Positions 11,345-62,446 are shown, counted from the first letter of the stretch. The stretch: DNA of 64,000 bases from Methylacidimicrobium fagopyrum (GCA_026225255.1 JAMFSJ010000043.1:23597-87596), one strand, 5' to 3'. The notes: generated by a model not told the origin, from the letters alone. Translations and numbers: made by a program.

Positions 11345-11474
11345 TTATAGGGATTAACTGGGTTGGGCAGCAATATAGATACGAATTAGACTGGATTCAA
11401 TGGCTTAAAACTTTGGGTTAATGTCATTGCCCGGCGGCGGCGGACGATGGCTTAATGATTCAAATCCCGTGCCC

Positions 11475-13711: not shown

Positions 13712-13716
13712 TATTT

Positions 13717-45690: not shown

Positions 45691-45865
45691 GCTGCGCCAG
45701 ACTATGGAACAAACCCGGCGATTCCAAAGCAAAAAAGTGTTACATTTTGGCACGGATGCGCCATGGTGCGGGCGTAAAAGTATTTTTGCGAAAGCGCTTT
45801 GCTGGCCGGATCGCCGGGTCGGCTTTAACGCTTTCACTCTTTACCGTTCCCTTTAAAATTCGGCC

Positions 45866-46773: not shown

Positions 46774-46873
46774 AGCTTAAATAAAATAACGGCAAAGCCG
46801 CAAAGCACACGCAGAATTTAATTGGAACCGCGGCCCGTTTGGAAAATACCCGCGTTGGGATCGGCCGGAGGAT

Positions 46874-46907
46874 CAACCACTAATCTGCGCTGATCTCCGC
46901 TGCCAAA
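46874..46907. repeat. Same motif family, intergenic between the porin and DUF721 genes
   Basis: caac cactaatctg cgctgatctc cgctgcc. Confidence 0.75.
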
Positions 46908-46934
46908 AAATTAGAGGATAAGGATATTTTGCCA

Positions 46935-46970
46935 AATAAAAAACCCCTCCCGGTTTTGGCCGGAAGGGGC
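46935..46970 (-). terminator. Rho-independent terminator of the porin gene
   Basis: Minus strand reads ccccttccgg-ccaaaa-ccgggagggg followed by ttttttatttgg. Confidence 0.75.
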
Positions 46971-46988
46971 TGTAAGTTCTAAATCAGA

Positions 46989-48170
46989 TTAGAACGTGTA
47001 AATGAGGTTGAGCGCCAAGATGAAGGAGTTGGCTTGGCTCGAATCATTGCCAAAGGCGGTGCCGGAATCAGCATGATCCCAACGGACTTCAGCGCGGCTG
47101 ATGACATTAGCCCAGAGGTTGTATTGGACCGTGGCGGTGAGTTCTTCGCCCTTGCCGTTGGTGTTGCTATCAGGATATGCCGTCAACCCGCTAAAAGGCA
47201 TGTCGAAGTATTCGCCACGGAGGTTGAGGGACAATTTGTCGGTTGCTTGGAAGTTGCCATACAGACCAACGACCCAGCCGCTGCTGTTATGAGCATTTCC
47301 ATACGTATCTTTGTCAGCCAAGCTGATCAAGTCAAATGAGGAGCCGACTTTGAGCTTGCTGCACGGCGTCGGGATAACCAAACCAGCGTAGAAGTTGTTC
47401 TGGCCGCCGCTTTCCAGATTCAACAACGTGCCGACATTCGCGGTGCCACCTTTCAAGAAACCCCAGCTGTCAGGAGCCGTGAAGGCCACTGCGCCAGCAA
47501 AGGTTTTGGAAGACAGATGATTGGGAGCTGTGTCTCCACCAAAAATCGTTGAGTCGGTTGCATTCGCGATACCGCCAGAGACGGACAGCAAATCGCTGAA
47601 TTTGTAAGTGCCGATCAAACCGGTAAGGGTCGTAGGCTCGAAGGCATAACCGATGGAACGGGTATAGTTCGGATTCAAACCATCCGTGTTGCCTTCGTAA
47701 CCGATGATGTCGTCTTGCACGCCGACTTTCCAGTCAATGCCGTTGCCGAGCGGAGTGCGGATAACGATGTAAGCTTGGCGAACGCCGAAATTATTGAAGC
47801 CGTCTTTGTTTTCAGTCTCGCTTTCGAGTGAACTCAATCCGTTGATGGCGTCTGCACCCCAGTTCAAGTCAACGTGATAACCGGCCGCCCAAGGCGATTC
47901 GTCTTGGGGACGATCAATCGTAACCGTGATGTTGTTGAGGCTGAACTGGTCGATTTTGGACGCGCTCGTTCCAGCCGGAACGCCGTTATCACCGGTGTCA
48001 CTTTGGCTGCCCGTATTATACTGCGCCGCCACATCAACGTAACCGCTGATCGTGGTGTTGGAGAGCGCGGTCTGCAACGGGGTTATTTTCGTTTCGTCTG
48101 CACGCGCGGCTGAAGCCAAACTGACTGCGCCGATTGCTGCGAGACCCAATGTCCATTTATTAAACTTCAT
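46989..48170 (-). CDS. Outer-membrane beta-barrel porin-like protein
   Basis: ATG 48170 is preceded by GGAGGA and followed by the signal peptide MKFNKWTLGLAAIGAVSLASAARA. Alternating beta-strand pattern with a C-terminal ...LNLIYTF (terminal Phe). Confidence 0.7.
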   Translation of the reverse strand: MKFNKWTLGLAAIGAVSLASAARADETKITPLQTALSNTTISGYVDVAAQYNTGSQSDTGDNGVPAGTSASKIDQFSLNNITVTIDRPQDESPWAAGYHVDLNWGADAINGLSSLESETENKDGFNNFGVRQAYIVIRTPLGNGIDWKVGVQDDIIGYEGNTDGLNPNYTRSIGYAFEPTTLTGLIGTYKFSDLLSVSGGIANATDSTIFGGDTAPNHLSSKTFAGAVAFTAPDSWGFLKGGTANVGTLLNLESGGQNNFYAGLVIPTPCSKLKVGSSFDLISLADKDTYGNAHNSSGWVVGLYGNFQATDKLSLNLRGEYFDMPFSGLTAYPDSNTNGKGEELTATVQYNLWANVISRAEVRWDHADSGTAFGNDSSQANSFILALNLIYTF

Positions 48171-48536
48171 CTGTTCCTCCGATGTTGTTTGTTGTTGTTT
48201 GTTATCACCGAGTGGCAAAAACAGTTTGCCGTTATCACCTTGAAAGGTGGTTATGAGGTCGAAATTAAGGAAAACGAGGGTCAATGACAATAGATTTTTT
48301 ACGTATTTTTTGGGTGTGTCTTAGATTGAGCCAAGCCTTAAAACGCAATTATTTGTTTAAAATGCCCTTAAAATCGGACAGCTCGTGTCTCTTCAATCAC
48401 CATAAAATGGGCATAGTGAATTGGTAAAAAGTGGTTTTATAAGGAAATGCGGCGCTGGAACAGATTGTGCTTATTCATTTTAGAGCAGTGGCACGTCTTG
48501 ACCTGCCACGAACCCTAAATCATCACACTATAACGT

Positions 48537-49751
48537 ATGCCAGTCTTTACCTACACGGCGCGGGAAACGGCGTCAGGCCGGGAAATCCGCAATACAGTTG
48601 AGGCCCTCTCGGAGCAATCCGCCATCGCCGCGCTGCTCAACCGTAACTTGCTCGTCGTCGAAATCCGCGAAAAGATCGCCAAAAAAGGGCAGACGAAAGG
48701 TGGCAAAGTATCGAACGCGGATCTGGTGGTATTCACGCGGCAACTGGCGACGATGATTGACGCCGGTATCGCCATCGTGCAAGCGTTGCAGGCGCTCGCC
48801 GAACAGACGCCGAACAAGGTCATGCGGGATACCGTGAGCGATATTTGCACCCGGGTCGAAAGTGGTGAAAGCTTTTCCGAAGCGTTGACCAAGCATCCCA
48901 AGGCATTTAACAAACTTTATACGGCGATGGTTTCCGCCGGTGAAAAGGGCGGTTTGCTCGCCGAAATCATGGCGCGTTTGGCGACTTATCTGGAAAACAC
49001 CGAACGGCTTCGCAAAAAAGTGAAGACCGCGCTGATGTATCCGACCGTTGTGACGGTCGTGGCGATCGTCATCACCATCTTTTTGCTGGTGCGCGTGATC
49101 CCGACGTTCAAGGAGGTCTATTCTGGTTTCGGCGCGAAGTTGCCGGCCCCGACGCAGGTCATGATGGATATCAGCGACATCGTTCGTCATGATTTGCTCT
49201 ATTTAATCCTCATCGCTGGCGCCGCGATCTGGGGCTGGCTGCATTATATTAAGACCAAACCCGGTCGCGAATTTTGGGATCGCCAACGCATCAAGCTGCC
49301 GGTCTTCGGTCAAATCGCGCATAAAATCTGTCTCGCCCGCTTTACGCGCACGCTGGCGTCGCTCGTTCGCAGCGGTGTGCCTATTTTGGAAGTATTACGT
49401 ATCGTCTCGCAGGTCGTCGGCAACGTCGTCATGGAAAAAGCCATCAAGGCCGCATCGGACGACATCGAACGCGGCGAAGGTATTTCCAACGCGCTCGCCA
49501 AGCACCCGATTTTTCCGACGATGGTCATCCGCATGTTAAGCGCCGGTGAACAGACCGGTAATATTGATAACATGCTCGAACGCGTTGCGAATTTTCTCGA
49601 TGAAGAAATTGACGCGACGCTTTCCGGCCTCATGTCGCTCATCGAACCTTTGCTCATTGTTTTCCTGGGCATCACCGTCGGCAGCATGGTTGTTTGTATG
49701 TTCCTGCCGATTTTCAACCTGGCGAACATCGTCAACGGCCCGCAGAAATAA
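48537..49751 (+). CDS. Type II secretion / type IV pilus platform protein (GspF/PilC family)
   Basis: 404 aa with two GspF-type repeats (FTRQLATMIDAGIAIVQAL; FTRTLASLVRSGVPILEVL) and three TM segments. Confidence 0.9.
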   Translation: MPVFTYTARETASGREIRNTVEALSEQSAIAALLNRNLLVVEIREKIAKKGQTKGGKVSNADLVVFTRQLATMIDAGIAIVQALQALAEQTPNKVMRDTVSDICTRVESGESFSEALTKHPKAFNKLYTAMVSAGEKGGLLAEIMARLATYLENTERLRKKVKTALMYPTVVTVVAIVITIFLLVRVIPTFKEVYSGFGAKLPAPTQVMMDISDIVRHDLLYLILIAGAAIWGWLHYIKTKPGREFWDRQRIKLPVFGQIAHKICLARFTRTLASLVRSGVPILEVLRIVSQVVGNVVMEKAIKAASDDIERGEGISNALAKHPIFPTMVIRMLSAGEQTGNIDNMLERVANFLDEEIDATLSGLMSLIEPLLIVFLGITVGSMVVCMFLPIFNLANIVNGPQK

Positions 49752-49923
49752 TGGGGAAATGACGAATGACGAATTGCGGACGGGGCAGTTTTTATGCTCG
49801 TTCGCGTAATTTGGGTGTTTCGCGGTTACAAAGTTAGAGTTTTAACCGCGAGCTGTCCGAAAAATTTAACCGAAGGCCATAAAGCTAACGAAGCCCTTCG
49901 TTTCCAGCTTCGGTTAAAAACCA

Positions 49924-49956
49924 AAAACCGCCGGAGAATTTTTCTCCAGCGGTTTT
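49924..49956. terminator. Bidirectional terminator hairpin between pilC-like and MBL hydrolase genes
   Basis: aaaaccgccggagaa / ttctccagcggtttt (15 bp, 1 mismatch), with T-runs on both strands. Confidence 0.7.
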
Positions 49957-49966
49957 GTTTTTCAAA

Positions 49967-51343
49967 TCAGGCCGTCACGACTTTTCCCGGTTGCGGGTGG
50001 AAAACTTTGATCTTCGGCCAACGTTCATGGATTTTTTGCTCGAACCACGCGCGGGACGCTTCATCGCCGTGACCCAACAATACTGCGCGCGGTGAAACTT
50101 GACCGACCAAATCCAACAATTCCTCGCGGTTCGCGTGCGCCGTCAGATCGAAATCCTGCACATCACACTTCTTCGTCACCGCGCCCGCGCTCGGGCTGAA
50201 CACGAACGTCTCGCCTTGTTTGGCCGCCTTCAAATGGCCCGCCGGTGAATCTGGATCCGCGTAACCGACGAAGAAAATGCTCTGCCGTTCGTCGCCGATC
50301 ATGCGCGCCGCCAAATCGTGTGCCGCCGTATTCTCACTCATCATGCCAGCCGTGATGACGAAAATTTTACTGCCGCTCAACTTCATGTTTTCCGCCTGGC
50401 CTTTTTCCAGCACGATCAATTGCAACGCCTCGTTCAACTTCAAATTCGTATGTTGCCGATGTGCGCGATGCGCCTCGATGTCGTAAATTTCCGTGAACAC
50501 GCGCCCGAGCCCGCCGATATAAATGGGCTGCTTTTTCAATTTATCTTCGCGCATCAACAACGCCAGCATCGCCAAGATTTCCTGCGTGCGGCCGAGCGCA
50601 AACGACGGAATCAAGATACAACCCTTGCGCTTCTGCGCCGCGTGAATGGCTTCGACCAACCGCTCGGTTTCTTTTTCGCGCGTGAAACCCGGAGGCACTT
50701 CGCGATTGCCGCGCGTGGTTTCCATGATGAGCACGTCGGCCTTCACATCGTTGAACTGCGCGCTTTTCAAAAGTGTTTGATCGTGAAAACAAACGTCGCC
50801 CGTGAAGAACAACGTTTCCTTTTTGCCGCGCAATAAAATACCGGCGGAACCCAGCGTGTGGCCCGCTTCAAAAAATTCCAGCGTCGGCGACGGAATCCCC
50901 GCGCGTTGTTTTTTGAACGAACCCCATTCGACTTCACGATTGCATTTGAAACCTTGAAAATACGGCGCGATGTCGTCCACTTCGTCATGCGTGTAGAGCG
51001 GATATTCGCGGATACCGCGCTCGTCGCGTTGCCGCGTCATCACGTTCACGGAATTATGCAGCACGCGCTCGATCAACAGATAACTCAGTTCCGTCATCAA
51101 CACGTGCGCCTTGGGAAATTGCCGCACCGCGACCGGCAACGTGCCGATATGATCGTGATGACAATGCGAAATCGCAATCGCATCCACTTCGCCCTGGCCG
51201 GCCTTATTATAGAGCGGCACGCCCTCGCGACCCTCGCGTTTCGGATGCATCCCGGCATCGAGCAAAATGCGATGTTCCTCCAATTCTACCAGCCAAGAGC
51301 TCGCCCCAATATCCGAGTCCGGATTCAAATTCGTTATATTCAC
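49967..51343 (-). CDS. MBL-fold beta-CASP family hydrolase (RNA-metabolising type)
   Basis: HCHHDH metallo-beta-lactamase motif and beta-CASP-type C-terminal motifs (DLTAHANREELLD). GTG start at 51341-51343. Confidence 0.8.
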   Translation of the reverse strand: MNITNLNPDSDIGASSWLVELEEHRILLDAGMHPKREGREGVPLYNKAGQGEVDAIAISHCHHDHIGTLPVAVRQFPKAHVLMTELSYLLIERVLHNSVNVMTRQRDERGIREYPLYTHDEVDDIAPYFQGFKCNREVEWGSFKKQRAGIPSPTLEFFEAGHTLGSAGILLRGKKETLFFTGDVCFHDQTLLKSAQFNDVKADVLIMETTRGNREVPPGFTREKETERLVEAIHAAQKRKGCILIPSFALGRTQEILAMLALLMREDKLKKQPIYIGGLGRVFTEIYDIEAHRAHRQHTNLKLNEALQLIVLEKGQAENMKLSGSKIFVITAGMMSENTAAHDLAARMIGDERQSIFFVGYADPDSPAGHLKAAKQGETFVFSPSAGAVTKKCDVQDFDLTAHANREELLDLVGQVSPRAVLLGHGDEASRAWFEQKIHERWPKIKVFHPQPGKVVTA

Positions 51344-51352
51344 TGGAAAAAT

Positions 51353-51390
51353 TTAACCACAAATGAAAACGGATAAAAAGGATGAAGGTG
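51353..51390. repeat. TTAACCAC-anchored phased A-rich element next to the MBL hydrolase start
   Basis: ttaaccac aaatgaaaac ggataaaaag gatgaaggtg. The 8-mer lies exactly 9 nt from the GTG start (minus strand). Confidence 0.75.
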
Positions 51391-51540
51391 GAATTATGAT
51401 GAATTAAAAACGCCCGCGCACGCGCCGGTATGCGGTGGCCAGTTCTTGCAACGATGAACCCACGGAATTATCGATCGACCCAAACGAACGCGCATGCAGG
51501 AAAGCGGCGGTTCGCGTTTTATCCGTGGTTATTTTTTATT

Positions 51541-51570
51541 TTTCGTGTCTTTCATGTCTTTCGTGGTTAA
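51541..51570. repeat. Mirror copy: phased repeat ending GTGGTTAA, 9 nt before the mtnP ATG
   Basis: tttcgt gtctttcat gtctttcgt ggttaa (9-bp period), then aaatttccc-ATG. Confidence 0.75.
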
Positions 51571-51579
51571 AAATTTCCC

Positions 51580-52443
51580 ATGTCAAAATACAAGGTCGGC
51601 ATCATCGGCGGCAGCGGGTTGTATCACATCGAGGGTTTTACTAACCAGAAATGGGTGAAAGTCAAAACGCCTTTCGGGGCGCCATCCGATGAATTTCTCA
51701 CCGGCACACTCGCCGGACGCGAAGTCGTTTTTCTCCCGCGCCACGGCCGCGGTCATCGTGTTTTGCCGAGCGAGTTGAATCATCGCGCGAATATGTGGGC
51801 GATGAAAAAACTCGGCGTCGCGTGGATCATCAGCGTTAGCGCCGTCGGTTCCCTGCAAATAAAATACGCGCCGTGCGACATCGTTTTGCCCGATCAATTT
51901 CTCGACCGCACCAAGCGTGATTTTGAACACACCTTTTTCGGCCGCGGCATCGTCGGCCACATCGCGTTCGCCGATCCGATCTGCGAAGAGTTGCGGCAAA
52001 TCATTTTGAAAAGCGCGCGCAGCCTGAAGGCGAAAGTCCACGATGGCGGCACTTATGTGAATATGGAAGGTCCGGCATTCAGCACGCGCGCCGAATCTAC
52101 GACCAATCACAAGCTCGGCTACGATGTCATCGGCATGACCAATTTGGGCGAAGCCAAATGCGCCCGCGAAGCCGAGATCGCCTACGCCACCATGGCGATG
52201 ATCACCGATTATGATTGTTGGAAAGTGGACGAAGCGCATGTGACTGTTGAAATGGTGATCGCCAACCTGACGAAAAATGCGGCGACCGCCAAAGCCATCG
52301 TCGCCAAAGTTATTCCGCAAATTCCCACCGAACCGACGTGGTCGTGTCACAGCGCCTTGAAAAACGCCATCATGACCGACCGCAAAGTGTGGCCGAAGAA
52401 AACCATCGCCGAATTGAAGCCGATTATTGCGAAATATTTGTAA
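51580..52443 (+). CDS. mtnP: S-methyl-5'-thioadenosine phosphorylase
   Basis: VGIIGGSGLY, FLPRHGRGH and GMTNLGEAKCAREAEI are typical of the MTAP/PNP family. Confidence 0.9.
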   Translation: MSKYKVGIIGGSGLYHIEGFTNQKWVKVKTPFGAPSDEFLTGTLAGREVVFLPRHGRGHRVLPSELNHRANMWAMKKLGVAWIISVSAVGSLQIKYAPCDIVLPDQFLDRTKRDFEHTFFGRGIVGHIAFADPICEELRQIILKSARSLKAKVHDGGTYVNMEGPAFSTRAESTTNHKLGYDVIGMTNLGEAKCAREAEIAYATMAMITDYDCWKVDEAHVTVEMVIANLTKNAATAKAIVAKVIPQIPTEPTWSCHSALKNAIMTDRKVWPKKTIAELKPIIAKYL

Positions 52444-52520
52444 GGAATATGTTTTAAAGATCCGAGGTGATTTAAAAAAGACTTTGCCGTCCCTTTGCCG
52501 GTCGTTACTGTTTCATCAAG

Positions 52521-53012
52521 ATGTCAGGGATACTTCAATCACTTCAGGGCCGCGAGGCGCGCCGCTTCGGAGCTGGCGAATTCATTATCCGACAGGGCGA
52601 AACCACCGAGCAGCTTTATTTTCTGATCGAAGGCGTCGTTGAAGTTTTGAAAGACGACGTGCGCGTTGCCGCCGCCCAACAGCCCGGCCAAGTCTTCGGC
52701 GAAATGGCGGTATTGCTCCGCGTTCCCCACACCGCTTCTGTGCGGGCAGTAAAGCCGTGCAGTTTTTACATCGTCGAACAACCGCGGGAATTTCTGAAAT
52801 CGTCGACGACGTTATGCGTTCATGTGTGCGAATTGCTGGCGATGCGGTTGGATGCGCTTAATAAATACTTGGTGGACGTGAAGCATCAATATGACGGCCA
52901 CGACCATCTCGGCATGGTGGATGAAGAGCTGGAAGCGTTGCTCCATCGGCAGCCGAGTTCCCGTGTGCGTCCCAAGGATTCAACTGTCAGCCACGGTCAG
53001 CTTCCGGATTGA
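52521..53012 (+). CDS. Cyclic nucleotide-binding domain protein
   Basis: cNMP-binding beta-barrel with a phosphate-binding cassette (FGEMAVLLRVPHTASVRA). 163 aa, no other domain. Confidence 0.8.
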   Translation: MSGILQSLQGREARRFGAGEFIIRQGETTEQLYFLIEGVVEVLKDDVRVAAAQQPGQVFGEMAVLLRVPHTASVRAVKPCSFYIVEQPREFLKSSTTLCVHVCELLAMRLDALNKYLVDVKHQYDGHDHLGMVDEELEALLHRQPSSRVRPKDSTVSHGQLPD

Positions 53013-53759
53013 TTGGCCTTCAATCGAAATCCATTCCGCCGTCATCGCATCCAGATCCAGTGAAATGTGCGTTGGGCTTGGGCCGATTTGTTTGCCGGGA
53101 TTAAAAACCCATGTCTTGCCGATCCGGTCAATCCAGGCACCTTCCGCATAAAAAGGTGAATTATGGATGTGCCCGCTTAAAACCATGTCCGGCTGAAAAC
53201 GTTTGATCCATTCGAGCAACGCTTCGTCGCCGCCGAATTTTTTACCCGTCCAACAAACCGGTGAACCCGCCGGCGGCGCGTGATGCACCCAGATCCAGCG
53301 ACCGTGACGCTTCTGCGCCTGATCAGAAAGTTGTTTTTCCAATTCCGCGCGCGACACCGGGCCGTCCCACCACGGACAAATCGTCACGAGCGTGCCGGAT
53401 AAATCCAGACTGTCGCCGTCCACGAACAAGCTTTCCGCCTTGGAATCATGAATCCAGCGGGCGATGGATTCATCCGCCGCGCTGCGCGAATCGCCATCGT
53501 GATTGCCCGAGCTGACCAGCAGCCGGGTTTTCTCGCGGAGGCGGGCAAGATATTTTTCGACCACGACAATTTGCACATCGAAATCCAAACTGGAGGCGAG
53601 ATCCAACAGATCACCGCCGATGATGACGGAATCGTAGTTCGCCGCATTGGCGACCAACCAATCGAACTGCTTGAGCGCATAATGGAGATCAGCGACGAAA
53701 AGCATCTTCATACAGTTCAACGGATTATGTGTCATCCCTTCCGGCGCGTCCATGTCCAA
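52980..53759 (-). CDS. Metallophosphoesterase (class III cyclic-nucleotide phosphodiesterase-like motif set)
   Basis: Motifs D-x-H (VADLHY), GGD (IIGGDL), GNHD, HH and GHIH in the canonical order. The true start may be the internal MKMLFVADLH (53711). Confidence 0.75.
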   Translation of the reverse strand: MDMDAPEGMTHNPLNCMKMLFVADLHYALKQFDWLVANAANYDSVIIGGDLLDLASSLDFDVQIVVVEKYLARLREKTRLLVSSGNHDGDSRSAADESIARWIHDSKAESLFVDGDSLDLSGTLVTICPWWDGPVSRAELEKQLSDQAQKRHGRWIWVHHAPPAGSPVCWTGKKFGGDEALLEWIKRFQPDMVLSGHIHNSPFYAEGAWIDRIGKTWVFNPGKQIGPSPTHISLDLDAMTAEWISIEGQSIRKLTVADS

Positions 53760-53843
53760 ACCTTCACTTCAAAAAAAGCCGAAAAGGAAACTCGTCTGCG
53801 AGGTTGCGTCGGGCGCATGGGATATTCATCATTTGCGTTCGGC

Positions 53844-54323
53844 ATGAACAAACGCGCTATCATCAAAAAAATCACCGCCAAGCTGACGAGTGAATTAGAA
53901 GTCTATTTCCGCGCCGCGCTCGCCTCGCGCACCGAAGCCACGCATGAATCGAGCAAAGCTGAAAATAAATATGACACGCGCGGTCTCGAAGCTTCCTATC
54001 TCGCGCGCGGCCAATCCAAGCAAGTAGCAGAACTGCAGGCGGCCATCGCCGATTTTGAAAAACTATCCGGCAAGCCGTTTGCGGACGGCCAGGCCATCGG
54101 CATCGGCGCGTTGGTGGAATTAGCCGTGGGCGGTGAACAAGCCTTTTATTTCATCGGCTCGCGCGCCGGCGGCACGGAAGTGTTGCACGGCAAAAAAGAA
54201 ATTCTCATCATCACCCCGCAATCGCCGCTCGGCGAACAACTCGTCGGCAAAAAATCCGGCGACACGTTGCCGCTAAATCTTGGCGGTTCTAAACAGCCCG
54301 CGAAAATTGTAAAGGTGGAATAA
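53844..54323 (+). CDS. GreA/GreB-like domain protein
   Basis: 159 aa from ATG 53844. N-terminal coiled-coil-like region and a C-terminal GreA/B-type beta domain (IGALVEL...ITPQSPLGEQLVGKKSGD). The track ORF extension (from 53448) is antisense to the phosphoesterase gene. Confidence 0.6.
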   Translation: MNKRAIIKKITAKLTSELEVYFRAALASRTEATHESSKAENKYDTRGLEASYLARGQSKQVAELQAAIADFEKLSGKPFADGQAIGIGALVELAVGGEQAFYFIGSRAGGTEVLHGKKEILIITPQSPLGEQLVGKKSGDTLPLNLGGSKQPAKIVKVE

Positions 54324-54432
54324 GTCAGTCCATCAGGCGGGGCTCAACTAGATTTCGCTTCTCCGTTCTACGTTTCAAAAAGCCGGTAAATATTTTCTTG
54401 CGGATTCAGGCTTTGCAACGCAAAGTGAGCTC

Positions 54433-55053
54433 ATGGAACCGAATTGGGCCGAAGAAAATCTGCAAACTATCCGCACGTTGATGGAACGTTCCGCCGTTTA
54501 TCGTCGGGCGCTGGCACCGATCATGTTGTTTGCCGGCGCGTTGGGAATCATCGCTGCCGCCGCCGGAATTTTATTTCATTTGGATTCGATGCGCGCCTTC
54601 AGTTCGCTGTGGCTCAGCACGGCGGCGCTGGCTATTGGCGGCACATTTTTGATCGCTCGCCGACAGTCATTGAAAGATAAAGAGCTTTTTTGGTCGCCCC
54701 CGACACGACGCGTGGCGCAGGCGCTTTTGCCCGCATTGACGGCGGGTGCGATTGTGAGTGCGTTGTTTCTCATCGGCGCAAATGACCTTAGTTTCACTAC
54801 GTTACTGACGTTTTTTTGGATTCTCTTTTACGGCTGCGCAATTCATTCCGCCGGATTTTTCATGCCGCGCGGCATGAAATTACTCGGCTGGATTTTCATT
54901 GTCGGTAGTTCCGGATTCTTTGGTGTTTTAGTAGTTTTTCACACGAGTTTGAATTTGAATGCGCATTGGCTCATGGGCGTTTTCTTTGGCTTGCTGCAAC
55001 TGATTTATGGTGCGTATCTCTATGTGACCGAGCAGAAAAATCCCGCCGCGTGA
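54433..55053 (+). CDS. Hypothetical 5-6 TM membrane protein
   Basis: Hydrophobic segments throughout. Translationally coupled to the downstream regulator (GTGA overlap). Confidence 0.6.
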   Translation: MEPNWAEENLQTIRTLMERSAVYRRALAPIMLFAGALGIIAAAAGILFHLDSMRAFSSLWLSTAALAIGGTFLIARRQSLKDKELFWSPPTRRVAQALLPALTAGAIVSALFLIGANDLSFTTLLTFFWILFYGCAIHSAGFFMPRGMKLLGWIFIVGSSGFFGVLVVFHTSLNLNAHWLMGVFFGLLQLIYGAYLYVTEQKNPAA

Positions 55054-55358
55054 ACCCGGAACCGTTCTTGCAATTGGATCGCGTGATCCATGAAAAAGGT
55101 CGGCTGGCCATCATGTCCATGCTCGCCGCCTCGCCGGAATTATCGTTCACCGAAATGCGCGACACGCTGGCGATGACCGATGGAAATCTAACGACGCACA
55201 TCAAAGCTCTGCAACAAGAAGGCTTCGTCGCCGTGGCTAAATCGTATCAAAATAACCGCCCGCTCACGACGTGTTCGCTCACGGTGGCGGGACGCAAGGC
55301 CTTCGCGGAATACATCAATCTACTCGAACAGATCGTCCGCCAGAACAAGCCGAAATAA
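55050..55358 (+). CDS. Winged-helix transcriptional regulator (HTH_34-like)
   Basis: LDRVIHEKGRLAIMSMLAASPELSFTEMRDTLAMTDGNLTTHIKALQQEGFV matches the winged-helix HTH_34 pattern. GTG start at 55050 overlaps the upstream stop. Confidence 0.7.
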   Translation: MNPEPFLQLDRVIHEKGRLAIMSMLAASPELSFTEMRDTLAMTDGNLTTHIKALQQEGFVAVAKSYQNNRPLTTCSLTVAGRKAFAEYINLLEQIVRQNKPK

Positions 55359-55492
55359 TTGCCGGAGCGCCGGGCATTGCTCGGCTTGGAGGCAATTTTC
55401 CCTGTTCGAGCCGAGTAATACTCGGCGTTCCAAAAAATAATTTGAACAAAAACGAATGCGCTTGGTCTTTAACTTTGTGATACAAAGCTAAT

Positions 55493-56356
55493 ATGAAAAT
55501 CATCCGTGCGGAACATCTGGGAATGTGTTTTGGAGTTCGGGACGCCATCGCATTGGCCGCGAGCACGGCCCAACGTGAACCGCTCACCATTTTGGGCGAC
55601 CTAGTTCACAACGAAACGGTGCTGGCCAGTTTACGTGCGCAAGGAATTCAATTCGCGCAAAACGCGAGCAGCGTAGCAACGCAAACGGCCATGATCACCG
55701 CGCACGGCGCCTCGGAACGCGCGATGAATGAAACGCGCAGACGCGGGTTGAACGTGCTGGAAGCCACGTGTCCGCTTGTTCACAGCGCGCATCGCAAACT
55801 CGCAACGCTCGTGCGCGAAGGATTTCATCCGATCATCATTGGTAAGCGCGATCACGTGGAAGTGCGCGGCATGACGGAAGATTTAAACGAGTTCGATGTC
55901 GTCTTGAATGAAACCGACATCACCAAACTTCAGGCGCGTCCGCGCTTCGGCATCATCGCGCAAACCACGCAACCCATTGAACGCGTCCGGCAATTAGTGC
56001 AGCTAGTGCGCGACCATTTTCCTAAATCTGAAGTGCGCTTCATAGACACCGTTTGCCAGCCGACCAAGCAACGTCAAAGCGCAGCGGTTGAACTGGCAAA
56101 ACAATGCGACACAGTGGTCGTCATCGGCGGCGCGCACAGCAATAACACGCATGAACTGGTAAAAACCTGTGCGCAATTTTGCGAACGCGTTCACCATGTC
56201 CAAACCGCCGCCGACCTGCGCGCCGAATGGTTTTGCGGAACGGAAACCATCGGCATAACCGCCGGAACTTCAACGCCAGACGAATTGATCGAACAAGTGA
56301 CGGCGTGGTTTGAGGCACTTTCAGTTTCAGTCCAACGCGAAAGAATTTTCGCATGA
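55493..56356 (+). CDS. ispH: 4-hydroxy-3-methylbut-2-enyl diphosphate reductase
   Basis: Three conserved Cys contexts for the 4Fe-4S cluster (GMCFGVRDA, TCPLVHSAH, TVCQPT). 287 aa. Confidence 0.95.
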   Translation: MKIIRAEHLGMCFGVRDAIALAASTAQREPLTILGDLVHNETVLASLRAQGIQFAQNASSVATQTAMITAHGASERAMNETRRRGLNVLEATCPLVHSAHRKLATLVREGFHPIIIGKRDHVEVRGMTEDLNEFDVVLNETDITKLQARPRFGIIAQTTQPIERVRQLVQLVRDHFPKSEVRFIDTVCQPTKQRQSAAVELAKQCDTVVVIGGAHSNNTHELVKTCAQFCERVHHVQTAADLRAEWFCGTETIGITAGTSTPDELIEQVTAWFEALSVSVQRERIFA

Positions 56357-57258
56357 ATCCGCTTTTTCTAATTTTCTTTTTACTCTCGTTGGCTTTGGCC
56401 GCGCCTGCCGTCGTAGGGAATAATTCGTGGTGGCGACTTTTGCTTGGAATGTTTTTATCGTTTACGGGAGTTGTATTTCCTCTGTTCGTCTTTGTTTTCA
56501 GCGGATTTCGCGCGCCTGAATGGAAAGGCGATTGTGTGCACGGCTGGGTGGATTGTTTTATTGTCGGCAAATTAGCGCTGTTGCCGCTGGTCATCGTGGC
56601 CACGATAACCTTATATGCGTTGGAAGTAGTTCGTGTTAAAAATCGGACGGACCGTTTGATCGTCATCGGAATTTTTCTTGGTGTTATCGTGGCCACGACA
56701 TGTTCCGTGTTCGGCATATTCTGCATCGGCTTAGGTGTCCGTGATGACAAATGGTTGTTGTTCGTGCCGATTTACACGGCGGCATGGTATTCGATTCGCG
56801 CGGTGCAATTGATCCAATTAACACGTTTCAGTTTTTGGACTTACCTTGGCGCAATCGCGGGTTCGCTGCCATTCTGGGTGGTGAGTTGGTTTTGGTCGCA
56901 CAGCGTTTACGCAGCATTGCCCGACAAACGGCCAGAAAACTGTTTCATCGTCACCGCCGCCAGTCTCGGTCATGAAAAATGTGTCGGCCCGTTGGTTGAA
57001 ATCACTCGTCACGGCTACAAACGCCGAGCTAATCAGCAGTTGCTTACCTTCTGGGAATTAGAAAATCGGTGGCAGAATCGCTCGTCCTGCAGCCATCGAA
57101 TTTTCCGTCAGTATTACAATCGGTTCGGCCCGCTCATCGCGCGGCAAATCAAATCACCTTGGCAGGCGGACCTGGTTCATCTTGCTCTCAAACCGATTGA
57201 ATTAACGGCCAGACTTGCCCTGCAAATGGGTGTAAAAAATATCCCAAAACAAAAATGA
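56353..57258 (+). CDS. Hypothetical membrane protein with a Cys/His-containing cytoplasmic C-terminal domain
   Basis: About 6 TM segments, then CFIVTAASLGHEKCVGP...YNRFGPLIARQI...LKPIELTA. ATG overlaps the ispH stop (ATGA). Confidence 0.6.
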   Translation: MNPLFLIFFLLSLALAAPAVVGNNSWWRLLLGMFLSFTGVVFPLFVFVFSGFRAPEWKGDCVHGWVDCFIVGKLALLPLVIVATITLYALEVVRVKNRTDRLIVIGIFLGVIVATTCSVFGIFCIGLGVRDDKWLLFVPIYTAAWYSIRAVQLIQLTRFSFWTYLGAIAGSLPFWVVSWFWSHSVYAALPDKRPENCFIVTAASLGHEKCVGPLVEITRHGYKRRANQQLLTFWELENRWQNRSSCSHRIFRQYYNRFGPLIARQIKSPWQADLVHLALKPIELTARLALQMGVKNIPKQK

Positions 57259-58007
57259 AATCTGAATCGCAATGGACTCGTTGGTGGTTGGTGGTGATTT
57301 ACGCGGCGGCGATGGCGTGGGTGGAATCTGCCGTGGTCTTTTATCTGCGCTCGATGATCCACCGCATTGAACCGCATCAGACAAATCCCTTTCCGATCAT
57401 CGGCGGCTTTGCGTCGGTGGAATTGCCGCGTGAACTGGCCACGATGATCATGCTCGCTGCCGTTGGTGCGCTGGCGGGACGGAACTGGCGCGCACGCTTC
57501 GGCTAAGCTGTCATCGCGTTCGGCGTGTGGGATATTTTTTATTATGTTTTCTTGAAAATGATTTGCGACTGGCCGCACTCACTGCTGGATTGGGACGTTT
57601 TGTTTTTACTCCCGTTGCCTTGGTGGGGCCCGGTGCTGGCGCCGGTTTTGATTTCCTTGCTAATGATTTCGTGGGGCACGCTGGCCACGCAAGGGCAAAG
57701 CGAAAAGCGGGAAGGCGGAAAGCGAAAAACCAGCGGCGCGTTCGGGTGGCTGCTGAATTTCATTGGCGTTGCGCTCGCGCTTTATGTTTTTATGGCCGAT
57801 ACGATTGCCGCTGCATATTACGGATTTGATGCCGTCCGCACTGTGCTGCCGGAGAAATTTAACTGGCCTCTATTCATCATCGCGCTGGGGCTGATGTCTG
57901 CACCTATGCTCCAAAAAATCCATGAATATTTGACCTTCGCATCCTTGAAGCGTAAAGCGGGCGAACCAGCCGATGAAATTTTATGCAAGCGTCCGCTGCA
58001 AAACTAA
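57255..58007 (+). pseudogene. Polytopic membrane protein frame interrupted by one in-frame TAA (57504-57506)
   Basis: Track ORFs 57255-57506 and 57525-58007 are in the same frame. The stop falls at the start of a predicted TM helix (RARFG*AVIAFGVWDIFYYVFL). This could be a pseudogene, a sequencing error, read-through or a genuine split. Confidence 0.5.
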
Positions 58008-58699
58008 AGCCATGCCCATCGGAAATCGCCACGCTGCTGCGCGGTGAGACGAAAGCCATTTCCGCGTGGAGTGAAAATTGGAACGCGCTACGATTCGCTT
58101 GGCACGTGATCATTATTATTCTGGGCGCGGGCAGCTATGGCGCGGCGATGGGTTGGTGGCGTGATCCGCAACAGTCATTTTATGTCGCGCTAAAATTTCC
58201 GCTCATCATCCTGCTCACCACCTTCGGCAATGCGCTGCTCAACGCCATGCTCGCGCCATTGCTGGGATTGAACATTCCGTTTCGCCAATCTTTTTCCGCC
58301 GTTGTGATGAGCAACACCGTCACGGCCACCATTCTTGGTGCGTTCAGTCCGTTGATTTTTTTCATGGTCTGGAATGCGCCGGAGATGAGCGCGAAAGTTG
58401 TTTCCTACACCGCTTACAATTTTATTTTGCTCACGCATGTCGCCGTGATCGCGCTGGCGGGGACGATGGGAAATCTGCGTCTGCTGCAACTGCTCACGCA
58501 ACTCGCACACGGCCCCGCAATCGCCCGTCGCGTTCTGTGCGCATGGCTCGCGGGTAATTTATTTCTTGGTAGCCAGCTCTCGTGGATTCTGCGTCCGTTC
58601 ATCGGCGCGCCGTCGTTGCCCGTGCAATTTCTCCGCCCCGATTCCTTTCACGGCAATTTTTACGAAACCGTTTTTAACACCGTCCGCCATCTCTTTTAA
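57983..58699 (+). CDS. Hypothetical multi-TM membrane protein (paralog A)
   Basis: 5-6 TM segments. Paralogous to 58712-59524 (shared ...YG..(M/A)G..., and a C-terminal LRP(F/I)IG followed by F(L/F)). Confidence 0.6.
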   Translation: MQASAAKLKPCPSEIATLLRGETKAISAWSENWNALRFAWHVIIIILGAGSYGAAMGWWRDPQQSFYVALKFPLIILLTTFGNALLNAMLAPLLGLNIPFRQSFSAVVMSNTVTATILGAFSPLIFFMVWNAPEMSAKVVSYTAYNFILLTHVAVIALAGTMGNLRLLQLLTQLAHGPAIARRVLCAWLAGNLFLGSQLSWILRPFIGAPSLPVQFLRPDSFHGNFYETVFNTVRHLF

Positions 58700-58711
58700 C
58701 CAATAAAATAT

Positions 58712-59524
58712 ATGAACGAAAATAATCCGATCCCACCGCAGATCCCGCCAAGCGATTCGACACAAAACTTCACGGCGAACATCCCCAACTCGCCGCCACC
58801 GCCGCCGCGTTCCGGCCCGCGCCCGTTGGGCGATGATCCGGCGGAGCGCATCGCCATTCCGCATACGTTTGCCGCCATCGAAGCGTTATTGCGACAGCCG
58901 CGACGACTGCTCTTTCAACTGCGCCAGCCGGGTGCGGGCAAACTCATCGTCTCGATGTTGTTCACCGTGTTGATCTGTAGTGCGATTTACGGAGTGGTGG
59001 CCGGAACCTTTTCCGGCGGGACACAACTGTGGATCGCGCCGGTAAAAATCGCGGCGGGACTATTCATTTCGGCGGCAATCTGTTTGCCGAGTCTTTATAT
59101 CTTCACCTGCTTGAGCGGTTCACAGGCGCGGCTGATCGAAGTCGTCGGCCTGCTCGCCGGATTATTGATGTTGATGACGATCCTGCTCATCGGCTTTGCG
59201 CCCGTCGCGTGGATTTTTTCGCAATCCACTCAATCACTCGCGTGGATGGGCACGTTGCATCTGATTTTCTGGTTCGTAGCGACGCTGTTCGGCGTGCGCT
59301 TTATGAAATCCGGCTTTAATTATGCCGATGCCAAATCCCATGCCGGCTTGAACACGTGGATCATTATCTTCCTGCTCGTCGCGCTGCAAATGACCACCGC
59401 GCTGCGTCCGATCATTGGCAAAGCTGACCCAGTTTTGCCAACGGAGAAACAATTTTTCCTCAGCCATTGGATTGAGTGCATCAGCATCTCCAACGACAAG
59501 GCAAAAACGAATGCGCGTGATTGA
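58712..59524 (+). CDS. Hypothetical multi-TM membrane protein with Pro-rich N-terminus (paralog B)
   Basis: N-terminal NPIPPQIPPSD...NSPPPPPRSGPRP, then 5 TM segments. Paralogous to the upstream gene. Confidence 0.6.
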   Translation: MNENNPIPPQIPPSDSTQNFTANIPNSPPPPPRSGPRPLGDDPAERIAIPHTFAAIEALLRQPRRLLFQLRQPGAGKLIVSMLFTVLICSAIYGVVAGTFSGGTQLWIAPVKIAAGLFISAAICLPSLYIFTCLSGSQARLIEVVGLLAGLLMLMTILLIGFAPVAWIFSQSTQSLAWMGTLHLIFWFVATLFGVRFMKSGFNYADAKSHAGLNTWIIIFLLVALQMTTALRPIIGKADPVLPTEKQFFLSHWIECISISNDKAKTNARD

Positions 59525-59562
59525 ATTAAATTTTTTACAGGAGACGAGGGAACGAGTCTCAA

Positions 59563-59865
59563 ATGTTTGTGAAAAATCGTAAGACCAAAATTTTAATTTT
59601 GAGTGCGCCTTTGCTGCTGGTTCTGATTTATTTTGTCATGGCTGTAGTTGTTTTTGAGTTTAGCCAACCAGCGTTTCCGTATGACGAAGACAATTTTAAT
59701 GGACACGAAGTCGCTCTTGGCCCACGTCCTCGATTGTTATTTTGTAAGCGCACCCATGACGGTGTAAATTTTGAGGGTAAAGAATGGCCCTTTGTCGTAT
59801 TTCAGCCGCTATGCAAAATTTGGTGTAATAATCATGGCTACGTTCCGTCAGCCGAATGGAGATAA
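59563..59865 (+). CDS. Hypothetical small single-TM protein
   Basis: 100 aa. N-terminal TM (ILILSAPLLLVLIYFVMAVVVF) and a Cys-containing tail. Same strand, with tight spacing in the operon. Confidence 0.45.
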   Translation: MFVKNRKTKILILSAPLLLVLIYFVMAVVVFEFSQPAFPYDEDNFNGHEVALGPRPRLLFCKRTHDGVNFEGKEWPFVVFQPLCKIWCNNHGYVPSAEWR

Positions 59866-59900
59866 TCATTAAAACTCCTTACGTGTCTCTCACATTTATT

Positions 59901-60380
59901 ATGAATCGCGAACAAACTCTGCGTCACCGCATCAAATTACTGACGTGGCTGTTCATTATCGGCCTGGCAGTGAGCGGCGCGACGGCGATTCCGTTGTTGG
60001 GCGAAGTCAATTGGCTGACGAAATTTCTCAGCGTGCAGAACGGTTCATCGGAGATTTCCCATTGGCTGCTGCGCGTCCGCGAGGCGTTGGCGCAAACACA
60101 ATCGCAGCAACCGTTTCTTTTCTACGGCACGGATTGGCTGGCGTTCGGGCATTTTATCATCGCGTTGGTTTTTGTCGGCGCGTTGCGCGATCCAGTCCGC
60201 AATCGCTGGTTGTTCGACTTTGGTTTGATCGCCTGTGTGCTGGTGATTCCATTCGCGCTGGTTTTCGGCGGACTGCGCGGAATTCCGTTTTGGTGGCGAC
60301 TGATTGATTGTTCCTTCGGCGTATTCGGCGCGATTCCGCTGTGGTTTTGCCGTAAGTGGGCGATTGAATTAGAACGCTAA
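59901..60380 (+). CDS. Hypothetical 4-TM membrane protein
   Basis: ATG 59901 (MNREQTLRHRIKLLTWLFIIG). Four hydrophobic segments. Confidence 0.55.
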   Translation: MNREQTLRHRIKLLTWLFIIGLAVSGATAIPLLGEVNWLTKFLSVQNGSSEISHWLLRVREALAQTQSQQPFLFYGTDWLAFGHFIIALVFVGALRDPVRNRWLFDFGLIACVLVIPFALVFGGLRGIPFWWRLIDCSFGVFGAIPLWFCRKWAIELER

Positions 60381-60533
60381 AATTCAAACGGAGCTCGACT
60401 AGGACAGGCACAGACTAAAGCCAAGGCTTTTGAAGTGAATTAATAAATTCGCGGAACTAGCGTCATTGGCGCTGAACTTTCTTTTCTGATCCACGGCCAT
60501 TCGTAGTTCGGGTTTAGTTCATCCGGCTTGGGC

Positions 60534-60589
60534 TGGCACTGTGCCAACCGCGCCAGAAAATTTCCGTATTGGCACACTCTTTGTGCCAA
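60534..60589. promoter_or_regulatory. Two TGGCAC/GTGCCA palindromes upstream of hsp20
   Basis: tggcac-t-gtgcca (60534-46) and ttggcac-actcttt-gtgccaa (60569-89). Confidence 0.4.
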
Positions 60590-60670
60590 AACTTCCATTG
60601 TCACCAATCAATCCAACTGCGGAAAACGTAAAAACCCTTTTTTTCAAGGGTTTTGCGCCTAGTGCAAGGT

Positions 60671-60685
60671 TGGCATCGCGCAAGC
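60671..60685 (+). promoter_or_regulatory. Weak sigma-54-like element TGGCAT-N5-AAGC upstream of hsp20
   Basis: The GG and GC dinucleotides have correct -24/-12 spacing, 52 nt before the ATG. The -12 region is non-consensus. Confidence 0.25.
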
Positions 60686-60736
60686 TAAGTAGAGTTCGTT
60701 GGAAACATTAACCGAATAACCAAAAGAAAAAATATT

Positions 60737-61150
60737 ATGATACTGACACAATGTGAACGCCCCGGATCAGTGAACTACGGACGCCTGCAGGCCGAATTGG
60801 ATCAATTGTTCGGCGCGACGCGCACTTGGGCTCCGCGACTGGAAGTGCAGGAAGATAAGGATACTTTCAGCGTGCGCGCGGAATTGCCCGGCTTGAAACG
60901 CGAAGACATCGAAGTCGCTTTGAATGAAAACGAACTCGTCATCTCCGGCGAACGCAAAGCGGAGACTGTCGGCGAAGGCACTGAAGTGCATCTGCGCGAG
61001 CGAAGCTACGGGAAATTTTCCCGCACTCTCACGCTGCCGAGCGCCCTCGCGACCGATCAAGTGAAGGCCGCTTACAAAGACGGCATTCTCACCGTGACGC
61101 TGCCGAAAGCGGAAGCCGCCAAACCGAAGCAGATTGTCGTTAGCGAGTAA
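60737..61150 (+). CDS. Small heat-shock protein (Hsp20/alpha-crystallin family)
   Basis: Alpha-crystallin domain (FSVRAELPGLKREDIEVALNENELVISGERK...YGKFSRTLTLP...GILTVTLPK). Confidence 0.9.
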   Translation: MILTQCERPGSVNYGRLQAELDQLFGATRTWAPRLEVQEDKDTFSVRAELPGLKREDIEVALNENELVISGERKAETVGEGTEVHLRERSYGKFSRTLTLPSALATDQVKAAYKDGILTVTLPKAEAAKPKQIVVSE

Positions 61151-61166
61151 AACGGGCGATTAATAA

Positions 61167-61205
61167 GGAAGGCAGGAATTCAGGAAAATCTGATTCCTGC
61201 CTTCC
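61167..61205. terminator. Bidirectional hairpin between convergent hsp20 and the Wzz-like gene (same AGGAAGGCAGGA family)
   Basis: ggaaggcaggaattcag / ctgattcctgccttcc, a 16-bp stem with a 1-nt bulge. Preceded by gattaataagg, as in the 44475 element. Confidence 0.65.
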
Positions 61206-61213
61206 GGTTTGCA

Positions 61214-62446
61214 TTATTGCTGACGTGCTGATTTGAGCAGGAGCCCTCCGCTCAGCGTGGAGATCAAACCAATCGTCAGTAAGATTGCGCCCAGAAAACG
61301 GTTCGGGCCGGCGGGAAATTTTGGCGGTTCGGCTAGATCCACGATTTGAGGTGTAGAATCGCTTATAATTCCTGCGCCCATTTTGATTGCATCGATTTTC
61401 GCCCGGATTAATCGCAGTTGGTCTTGCTGTTGGTCGAGTTGGATTTTTGCGTCGTAATAAGGCTGGTTTTTGGGGTCGTGTTCCTCTGCGTTTTTATCTC
61501 TCAACTGGCGGATAGAATCCAGCGCCGCCTTTTTAGAATTCAATTCACTTTCCAAACCGGCCATAAGGCCGGCAACGCGGTCATCAATTTGTTGATTCAA
61601 CGTATTCAAGCTCGTTTGCGTCTGAATCACTTCAGTATTTGTGGGTAGATAATTATCCGTCAACGATTCATACGCTTGCTCGGTTTCGGATAATTTCTTT
61701 AGCAGATCCATCAATGCCGCGTCGTGAACGACCAATGGCAAATCCGCACGCAATTGGTTGGCATCGTCCGTTTTCAGCTTGGCCAGTTGGTTGGAAGATT
61801 GTAGATAATCGCGCTCCGCTTGCACCTGATCCGCGGCCTCGGACTGCGTAATAGTCGTGGAATCTAATGAATCTTTGATTCTCAACTTTTTCCGCAATTC
61901 ATCTACATTCGTCTGCAAGGTTTGAATTTTCTTTTCCTCGGTTTGATAGCCTTCCTCTAAAGATTTCATTCCCGCAATCATTAATTGTCGATGTGATTCC
62001 TCCCGATAATTTTTATAAGAATCAGCAATGGCATTGGCAATATTCGCCGCATCTTTCGGATCGTCGCTAAAAAAAGTGATGGTAATGAGTTTCGTGTTGG
62101 GCACTGGCTCTAATATTAATTTACCTTTAAGGATTTTCAGCGTTTCGCTCAACTTGAGCGGCGCGCCACGGTTATATTTCACGCCCCATTCATGATTCAA
62201 ATCTAAAGACGCAACGACATTGCTCAATACCACTTCTGATTGCATGATTTCAAACGTGGTCTGGATGAAGTAAGGATCAAAAGAAGCATCTGCCTGACCG
62301 TTTTCGTCGAACCCGGTTTCTACTTGGATTCTCGCCGTCGCCTTAAATTGTGGCGGACGCGATAACCACGATACGCCAATGCCGCAAAGCACTAGGCCGG
62401 CAATTAAAAATGCGAGGCCGAGCATTTTGGTTTCAGGAGATTTCAT
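61214..62446 (-). CDS. Polysaccharide chain-length determinant-like protein (Wzz/GumC-type topology)
   Basis: N-terminal TM (LGLAFLIAGLVLCGIGV), a long coiled-coil periplasmic region and a C-terminal TM (FLGAILLTIGLISTLSGGLLL). Confidence 0.6.
   Translation of the reverse strand: MKSPETKMLGLAFLIAGLVLCGIGVSWLSRPPQFKATARIQVETGFDENGQADASFDPYFIQTTFEIMQSEVVLSNVVASLDLNHEWGVKYNRGAPLKLSETLKILKGKLILEPVPNTKLITITFFSDDPKDAANIANAIADSYKNYREESHRQLMIAGMKSLEEGYQTEEKKIQTLQTNVDELRKKLRIKDSLDSTTITQSEAADQVQAERDYLQSSNQLAKLKTDDANQLRADLPLVVHDAALMDLLKKLSETEQAYESLTDNYLPTNTEVIQTQTSLNTLNQQIDDRVAGLMAGLESELNSKKAALDSIRQLRDKNAEEHDPKNQPYYDAKIQLDQQQDQLRLIRAKIDAIKMGAGIISDSTPQIVDLAEPPKFPAGPNRFLGAILLTIGLISTLSGGLLLKSARQQ

Follow-up and report, generated by a model that had tools for sequence, protein, structure and literature searches.

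The ispH gene of Escherichia coli lies in the ribF-ileS-lspA-fkpB-ispH operon, and hopanoid (hpn) clusters carry copies of ispH, ispG or dxs together with genes for the B12 radical S-adenosylmethionine (radical-SAM) proteins HpnJ, HpnP and HpnR. In Bacillus subtilis, the SdpR-SdpI pair consists of an ArsR-type autorepressor that is controlled by the adjacent polytopic membrane protein. Here, we compare these systems with a compact gene string from Methylacidimicrobium fagopyrum, in which ispH is followed by a series of uncharacterised membrane protein genes and preceded by a small transcription regulator and its membrane protein partner. The analysis was carried out on a 64-kb stretch of DNA (GCA_026225255.1 JAMFSJ010000043.1:23597-87596), referred to below as the window, with coordinates counted from its first letter. 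The string occupies positions 54433-60380 on the plus strand and consists of mem206, a gene for an HTH_34 regulator, ispH, a DUF6688 gene, and the genes g3, g4, g5, g6 and g7.

As in the E. coli operon, where one of the neighbors encodes an envelope enzyme, the essential ispH gene is found here with genes from outside the methylerythritol phosphate (MEP) pathway. In contrast to E. coli, ispH is the first gene of the operon in the window, has a putative dedicated operator, and is then followed only by uncharacterised membrane proteins. The locus resembles hpn clusters in that ispH lies amid membrane proteins, and related loci also encode radical-SAM proteins that match HpnJ and HpnR best. However, no squalene synthase, squalene-hopene cyclase, resistance-nodulation-division transporter or other hpn gene is found here, the scores of the radical-SAM proteins are far under the cut-offs, and none of the core membrane proteins has a characterised relative. 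The likeness to SdpR-SdpI lies in a winged-helix regulator that is coupled to a polytopic membrane protein and in a palindrome before the operon of the pair, while the gene order is reversed, a second operon carries an operator, and mem206 falls outside named families. This likeness is in working logic only, as membership of the regulator in the SdpR family (NF033789) was rejected with a score of 15.9 bits against a cut-off of 100. Finally, accessory proteins encoded by relatives of the locus show a weak but specific match to the linalool dehydratase/isomerase (Ldi) of Castellaniella defragrans and carry an N-terminal anchor or signal; they differ from Ldi in being membrane-anchored, in being fused in one locus (L043) to DUF6688, and in a genetic context that is not catabolic.

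A conserved palindrome is present both before the operon of the regulator itself and before the target operon headed by ispH. From comparison with related genomes, we conclude that the regulator-operator pair is likely to control its own operon as well as the ispH-led operon, and that the operator is probably older, with ispH inserted behind it in one clade.

Organization of the gene string

An initial annotation of positions 55493-60380 had described a unit that begins at ispH, with all genes on the plus strand and with overlapping or very short junctions. The gene calls confirmed the common strand, the ATGA overlaps between ispH and DUF6688 (56353-56356) and between DUF6688 and g3 (57255-57258), the 25-nt overlap between g3 and g4 (57983-58007), and the gaps of 12 nt between g4 and g5 (58700-58711) and of 38 nt between g5 and g6 (59525-59562). 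The proposed 10-nt overlap between g6 and g7 (59856-59865) is doubtful. Homologs of g7 align from Met16, and almost all of its relatives among the matches listed are 160–180 residues long; the start of g7 is thus probably at 59901, in which case the overlap falls away. The extent of the unit was also drawn too narrowly, since the upstream mem206 and HTH_34 regulator genes belong to it; we regard this regulatory pair as the feature of the locus that tells most. The features are as follows.

54411-54425, no strand assigned: palindrome 1, operator-like, CTTTGCAACGCAAAG, ending 8 nt 5' of the mem206 ATG
54433-55053, plus strand: mem206, a 206-residue polytopic membrane protein, conserved partner of the regulator
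55050-55358, plus strand: HTH_34 winged-helix transcription regulator of 102 residues, with a GTGA overlap with mem206
55442-55469, plus strand: promoter-like boxes TTGAAC-N16-GGTCTT, 5' of palindrome 2, conserved
55473-55487, no strand assigned: palindrome 2, operator-like, CTTTGTGATACAAAG, ending 5 nt 5' of the ispH ATG
55493-56356, plus strand: ispH, 4-hydroxy-3-methylbut-2-enyl diphosphate reductase (Pfam LYTB, TIGR00216)
56353-57258, plus strand: DUF6688 protein (PF23543), six transmembrane (TM) helices and a C-terminal Cys/His domain
57255-58007, plus strand: g3, a polytopic membrane gene, pseudogenised, with an in-frame TAA at 57504-57506
57983-58699, plus strand: g4, a 238-residue membrane protein, paralog of g5
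58712-59524, plus strand: g5, a 270-residue membrane protein, paralog of g4, Pro-rich in its N-terminal tail
59563-59865, plus strand: g6, an orphan open reading frame (ORF) of 100 residues in a low-GC spacer, of doubtful gene status
59901-60380, plus strand: g7, a four-TM protein of ~159 residues, highly conserved, with an alternative upstream start at 59856

Every protein in the window was screened with Pfam and NCBIfam, and only IspH, DUF6688_C and HTH_34 were returned. The statement that none of the membrane proteins belongs to a nameable family therefore needs a correction for DUF6688, which is a named, uncharacterised Pfam family, and it stands for the others.

The ispH gene is genuine, as had been assigned. 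Its product matches the Pfam family LYTB (PF02401) with an E-value of 4e-77 and 259.4 bits (cut-off 24.5) and the equivalog model TIGR00216 with 247.5 bits (cut-off 187.85). The three cysteines that ligate the [4Fe-4S] cluster and the His, Glu, Thr and Ser-Asn catalytic residues align to those of 3DNF and E. coli IspH, with the motifs GMCFGV, ATCPLV, DTVCQPT, VHN, DHVEV, QTTQ, HSNNT and GTSTP.

Conserved regulator and candidate operator

The regulator matches HTH_34 (PF13601) with an E-value of 1.5e-24 and 86.4 bits (cut-off 27), and its closest solved relative is PH1061 (E-value 2.8e-6). The regulator is 78–91% identical across the clade, above the identity of ispH (61–80%). In every related locus with upstream sequence, the stop codon of mem206 overlaps the start codon of the regulator gene that comes next, and mem206 is distantly homologous to the regulator-partner gene of locus L036 (hhalign probability 90.6%). 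No match to mem206 was found in Pfam or NCBIfam, and a weak-hit scan of its homolog set gave nothing consistent.

The 15-bp palindrome CTTTGYNNNRCAAAG has only two exact copies in the 64-kb window, compared to 0.02 expected. Exact sites number 39 in 23 sources (the window and 22 related loci), and their half-sites are invariant, with a variable center. In ~17 related genomes, the mem206 homolog is preceded by the palindrome at an identical position, and every clade member has palindromes on both sides of the mem206-regulator pair. In genomes where the cluster has no ispH, the palindrome lies directly before DUF6688 in L021 and L018 and before g5 in L034; in L036, it occurs on both sides of the regulator pair. 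Since the half-sites are invariant and the center is variable, the palindrome is better explained by protein binding than by an RNA hairpin; a hairpin or terminator was rejected for the same reason, with no compensatory changes and no T-run present. A near-match at 45096 is located within a coding gene and is probably due to chance.

The TTGAAC and GGTCTT boxes are found at a fixed distance 5' of the ispH palindrome, and both their position and their sequence are conserved across relatives. They are also kept in L021, in which DUF6688 takes the place of ispH as the next gene. These boxes likely represent a promoter. A separate promoter 3' of ispH was also looked for; no conserved promoter-like element is present there, and the conserved promoter/operator-like element lies 5' of ispH, consistent with the proposal that ispH and the genes that follow form one unit. 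A search of Rfam over 53500-61500 returned no RNA family. An anti-phage defence island was considered and rejected, as the PADLOC matches were only generic hits of the Csa3-type helix-turn-helix to the regulator.

Conservation of the ispH-led cluster

Related loci were collected in two scans. The first, with one genome per species and anchored on DUF6688, yielded 44 loci, and the second, of metagenomes and anchored on the accessory Ldi-like gene, yielded 80 further loci. Of the 44 DUF6688-anchored loci, 18 contain ispH, and the labels of these are for the most part Limisphaerales, Verrucomicrobiia or subdivision 3. Seventeen of these 18 have the order mem206-HTH_34-ispH, followed by a combination of DUF6688, g3, g4, g5 and g7; the other (L007) is without upstream sequence. 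All of the metagenome loci with enough flanking sequence, among the 80, show the same cluster. Synteny with ispH is thus kept in 43 loci, corresponding to the window, 18 species-level genomes and 24 metagenome contigs. The positional link between ispH and the membrane proteins, on which the initial annotation was based, is therefore retained within one clade, but is absent in more distant genomes of the Planctomycetes-Verrucomicrobia-Chlamydiae (PVC) group.

In all 34 loci with upstream sequence, ispH is the first gene behind the operator and is preceded by the regulator and the palindrome. The gene directly 3' of ispH is DUF6688 in 16 loci, g4 in seven, g3 in seven, a radical-SAM gene in six and a di-iron-like gene in six. 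The ispH stop codon often overlaps the start of the next gene, whether this is DUF6688, g4 or radical-SAM. The spacing between operator and ispH is 5–26 nt in most loci and 140–360 nt in L009 (1222-1578), L032 (8579-8800) and L037 (4841-4979); the extra stretch in L009 contains a small hydrophobic ORF.

Membrane protein families

The DUF6688 protein matches DUF6688_C (PF23543) with 56.3 bits, compared to a gathering cut-off of 25. The six TM helices and Cys/His domain that were originally proposed are supported by the AlphaFold model (predicted local distance difference test, pLDDT, 90.9), which has six TM helices and an α/β C-terminal domain. Its invariant residues include the motifs PxWKGxCxxGWxDCF and CF[IV]xTAAxxGH, which are common to 54 relatives, and Cys61, Cys68, Cys197 and His207 are invariant or nearly so. 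In L043, DUF6688 is fused to an Ldi-like domain of 500 residues. Both DUF6688 and g7 carry many invariant polar, Cys and His residues.

The TAA codon that interrupts g3 (57504-57506) is real and in frame, and is also found in an independent Logan assembly. Homologs of g3 have Tyr or Phe at this position and the codon is intact in six relatives; since TAA stands in its place here, g3 is a nonsense pseudogene in this genome. Among 29 full-length clusters, g3 is present in 14, g4 in 24 and g7 in 19. A natural fusion of g3 and g7 is found in protein P0366.

The proposed paralogy of g4 and g5 is upheld. The two are true distant paralogs (hhalign probability 92.7%, E-value 4e-7), and in an all-against-all profile comparison of the families only these two were related. 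They are also naturally fused in protein P0122. More than 6,900 related clusters exist at 90% identity, and a Pfam domain is found in none of the 120 listed. A Yip1 domain (PF04893) was rejected for g4 and g5, as the window proteins were unmatched at E-values up to 0.1 and only one of 21 family members had a weak match (E-value 1e-3). Nothing could be learned from the genetic context of the P0122 fusion or from that of P0112, a long variant of DUF6688.

The status of g6 as a gene encoding 100 residues is doubtful, or else strain-specific: the 124 related loci contain no homolog, it forms a cluster of its own in a collection of 15 billion proteins, and its GC content at third codon positions is 0.39, compared to 0.54–0.69 in neighboring genes. 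The spacer between g5 and g7 (59525-59900) has a GC content of 0.40 and contains only this orphan. In relatives, the same slot is occupied by Ldi-like, di-iron-like, DUF1361 and small membrane protein genes. This spacer could have arisen by deletion or by insertion of foreign DNA.

The description of g7 as a four-TM protein holds, with ~159 residues, many of them invariant and polar. Clustered at 50% identity, the family comprises 1,011 representatives. A Lycopene cyclase domain (PF18916) was rejected and is regarded as a lead only, with a best E-value of 0.45 in three of 14 members and no PDB fold match.

None of the membrane proteins maps to a well-known family in Pfam, NCBIfam or PDB sequence searches, or, for g7 and DUF6688, in fold searches. 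Profiles of DUF6688, g3, g4/g5 and g7 matched no PDB sequence, and the AlphaFold models of DUF6688 and g7 (pLDDT 80.7 for the latter) gave no Foldseek match in the PDB with an E-value below 0.5. Weak-hit scans of the g4/g5, g3 and g7 homolog sets returned nothing consistent, with single weak Yip1 and Lycopene_cyc matches only. In L020, a bin derived from Oxford Nanopore Technologies reads, g3, g5 and g7 each seem to be split by frameshifts (10840-14361); these are most likely long-read assembly errors rather than pseudogenes.

Accessory genes of related loci

The Ldi-like proteins of relatives contain ~400 or ~500 residues, with an N-terminal membrane anchor or signal that is consistent with a periplasmic site. 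The top eight matches of their profile in the PDB are all linalool dehydratase/isomerase entries (E-values 9e-4 to 0.02), and the match spans about 160–190 residues. Two kinds of B12-binding radical-SAM protein are also found in relatives, and their genes directly follow ispH in several loci. The di-iron-like protein contains ~250 residues and two ExxH motifs, and has no database match. Further accessory genes encode DUF1361, DUF4153 and a small membrane protein.

Possible functions of the proposed regulon

The arrangement suggests a regulon of two operons, with mem206 and the HTH_34 regulator as operon 1, and ispH-DUF6688-(g3)-g4-g5-g7 as operon 2. A dimer of the regulator would bind both palindromes and repress both operons. 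The mem206 protein may sense a membrane condition and relieve repression, as in membrane-tethered repressor pairs. The induced membrane proteins could act as assemblies of g4 with g5, g3 with g7 and, in relatives, DUF6688 with a periplasmic Ldi-like protein, because each of these pairs occurs as a natural fusion (P0122, P0366 and L043, respectively). In one verrucomicrobial clade, ispH appears to have been recruited as the lead gene behind the operator, so that the supply of isopentenyl diphosphate and dimethylallyl diphosphate would rise along with the membrane proteins.

We tentatively favor a repressor-controlled envelope regulon that makes, modifies or handles an isoprenoid-derived lipid. 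Such a role is possible, and is the most economical because the membrane proteins would be co-expressed with ispH in the clade; the persistent lead position of ispH and accessory genes of kinds that include terpenoid-tailoring enzymes also point to it. The original hint at an isoprenoid link gains indirect support from the accessory genes of relatives, but finds no counterpart within the window, where no protein besides IspH is linked to isoprenoids by homology or demonstration. This and several other observations weigh against a lipid role. The linkage to ispH is confined to one clade, which is probably Verrucomicrobia subdivision 3/Limisphaerales. Versions without ispH exist in distant PVC genomes, where L034, L038 and L043 have the regulator with DUF6688, g4 and g5, and about 20 of the 44 DUF6688 genes stand alone beside unrelated genes. 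Because the gene after ispH varies, the constant partner of ispH is the regulator with its operator and not any single membrane protein. Module membership is mosaic across clusters, which fits a loosely related stress regulon as well. The window has a reduced version of the module, with g3 broken and none of the enzyme-like accessory genes of relatives present. In these relatives, the Ldi-like proteins match the Pfam family Ldi (PF18566) with an E-value of 5e-5 and 23.3 bits, under the gathering score of 26.1, the best NCBIfam matches of the radical-SAM proteins (HpnJ, HpnR and BchE) are far under their cut-offs, and in none of the cluster versions did we see a prenyltransferase, a terpene synthase or a squalene/phytoene synthase. 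Generic promoter and terminator scans, including a simple sigma-70 scan, found nothing above chance.

Many of these points would be accommodated by a membrane or envelope stress regulon without isoprenoid chemistry, in which the regulator pair would respond to disturbance of the membrane by inducing structural or protective membrane proteins, and in which ispH was rearranged behind the operator and kept there for adequate expression of an essential gene. Since the regulator, the operator and DUF6688/g4/g5 occur without ispH in distant PVC genomes, ispH would be a late addition. The mosaic gene content, the extracytoplasmic function (ECF) sigma/anti-sigma genes that adjoin the cluster in relatives, the hsp20 gene that adjoins it in the window, and the window's membrane proteins, in which no enzyme signature was found by Pfam, NCBIfam or fold search of g7 and DUF6688, are all in line with such a regulon. 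However, ispH keeps its first place through many downstream rearrangements, often with overlapping stop and start codons; the operon repeatedly contains accessory genes that look like enzymes and belong to types among which terpenoid-tailoring enzymes are found; and the invariant polar, Cys and His residues of g7 and DUF6688 exceed what would be expected of a purely structural role. We consider a stress regulon somewhat unlikely. A more specific form of the favored lipid role is an undescribed pathway of subdivision-3 Verrucomicrobia, in which IspH would feed new integral-membrane enzymes (g3-g7, g4-g5 and DUF6688) under the membrane-sensing repressor, to give an unknown isoprenoid-derived envelope lipid. 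Fuller versions of this pathway could be assisted by periplasmic Ldi-like hydratases, B12 radical-SAM enzymes and a di-iron enzyme. Stated in this detail, the proposal is rather unlikely.

Two further explanations were considered. Judging from their Joint Genome Institute sample accessions, most of the metagenome loci presumably originate from peat, bog or soil, and the cluster could serve in the response to, or detoxification of, external terpenes and membrane-active plant compounds in soil and peat, with the sensor pair detecting the compounds, periplasmic Ldi-like hydratases converting them and the membrane proteins protecting the cell or exporting them. Ldi, the sole characterised relative of the accessory proteins, acts in monoterpene degradation, its substrates in this pathway being linalool, geraniol and myrcene (PMC4109377), and the N-terminal anchor or signal of the accessory proteins is consistent with a periplasmic location. 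This explanation is improbable, however, as it leaves the lead position of ispH unaccounted for, the window itself has no Ldi-like gene, the Pfam and NCBIfam scans found no recognisable transporter or catabolic pathway, and the similarity to Ldi is weak. Alternatively, DUF6688 might be a membrane-bound metal or iron-sulfur partner that delivers electrons to the [4Fe-4S] protein IspH, repairs it or anchors it. The ATGA coupling of ispH and DUF6688 is kept in at least nine related species-level loci and in the window, the near-invariant Cys61, Cys68, Cys197 and His207 could be ligands for such a role, and the L043 fusion would place the C-terminal domain of DUF6688 in the cytoplasm, like IspH. 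Yet DUF6688 is missing in 16 of the 17 Ldi-anchored clusters whose sequence continues for 7 kb or more beyond ispH, is widespread at loci that have no ispH in the vicinity, and is not similar to known redox proteins by profile and fold search of the PDB, which makes a dedicated partnership with IspH very improbable.

A literature search on DUF6688, PF13601/HTH_34, linalool dehydratase and ispH operons in Verrucomicrobia found nothing that describes the cluster, DUF6688 or the regulator site. To our knowledge, no dedicated transcriptional switch on a bacterial MEP-pathway gene has been reported previously, and the one proposed here would be the first. The membrane families are large yet uncatalogued, with no Pfam model or solved relative for g7 and g4/g5, and the bacteria that carry them seem to be frequent in soil and peat. 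Through the operon, these proteins are connected with an isoprenoid enzyme that is essential and with a regulator that has a defined candidate DNA site, so that an otherwise opaque protein set becomes directly testable. If the isoprenoid link is true, the locus would provide new membrane enzymes or lipid-handling proteins together with a dedicated control point of the MEP pathway; if it is false, the locus would still add to the PVC group a membrane regulon that is new and well defined.

Neighboring elements

In relatives, the cluster is followed by a unit of ECF sigma, anti-sigma and a 600-residue protein, which is absent from the window. A conserved ECF-type promoter-like motif, CTAGACAAA-N15-GCGTCAT, lies upstream of this unit (L002-L119, e.g. 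L002 ~13680-13715). The ECF sigma gene was rejected as a member of the operon, as a conserved promoter-like motif of its own precedes it and the window lacks the gene. A comparison of positions 45000-54400 with L002-L012 showed that three genes (protein clusters c22-c24), located downstream of the cluster in relatives, are inverted here and located upstream of mem206. The inversion of c22-c24 and the missing ECF unit indicate a local rearrangement in the window.

The downstream neighbor in the window is the hsp20 gene (60737-61150). Between g7 and hsp20, a palindrome AAAACCCTTGAAAAAAAGGGTTTT at 60631-60654 is called terminator-like on the minus strand by the scan. A perfect inverted repeat, TTGGCAC-N7-GTGCCAA, is located at 60569-60589, ~150 nt 5' of hsp20, and occurs once in the window compared to 0.02 expected; a second TGGCAC/GTGCCA repeat is found near hsp20 at ~60533-60548. 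The TTGGCAC/GTGCCAA half-sites resemble those of the controlling inverted repeat of chaperone expression (CIRCE), a heat-shock operator with the sequence TTAGCACTC-N9-GAGTGCTAA.

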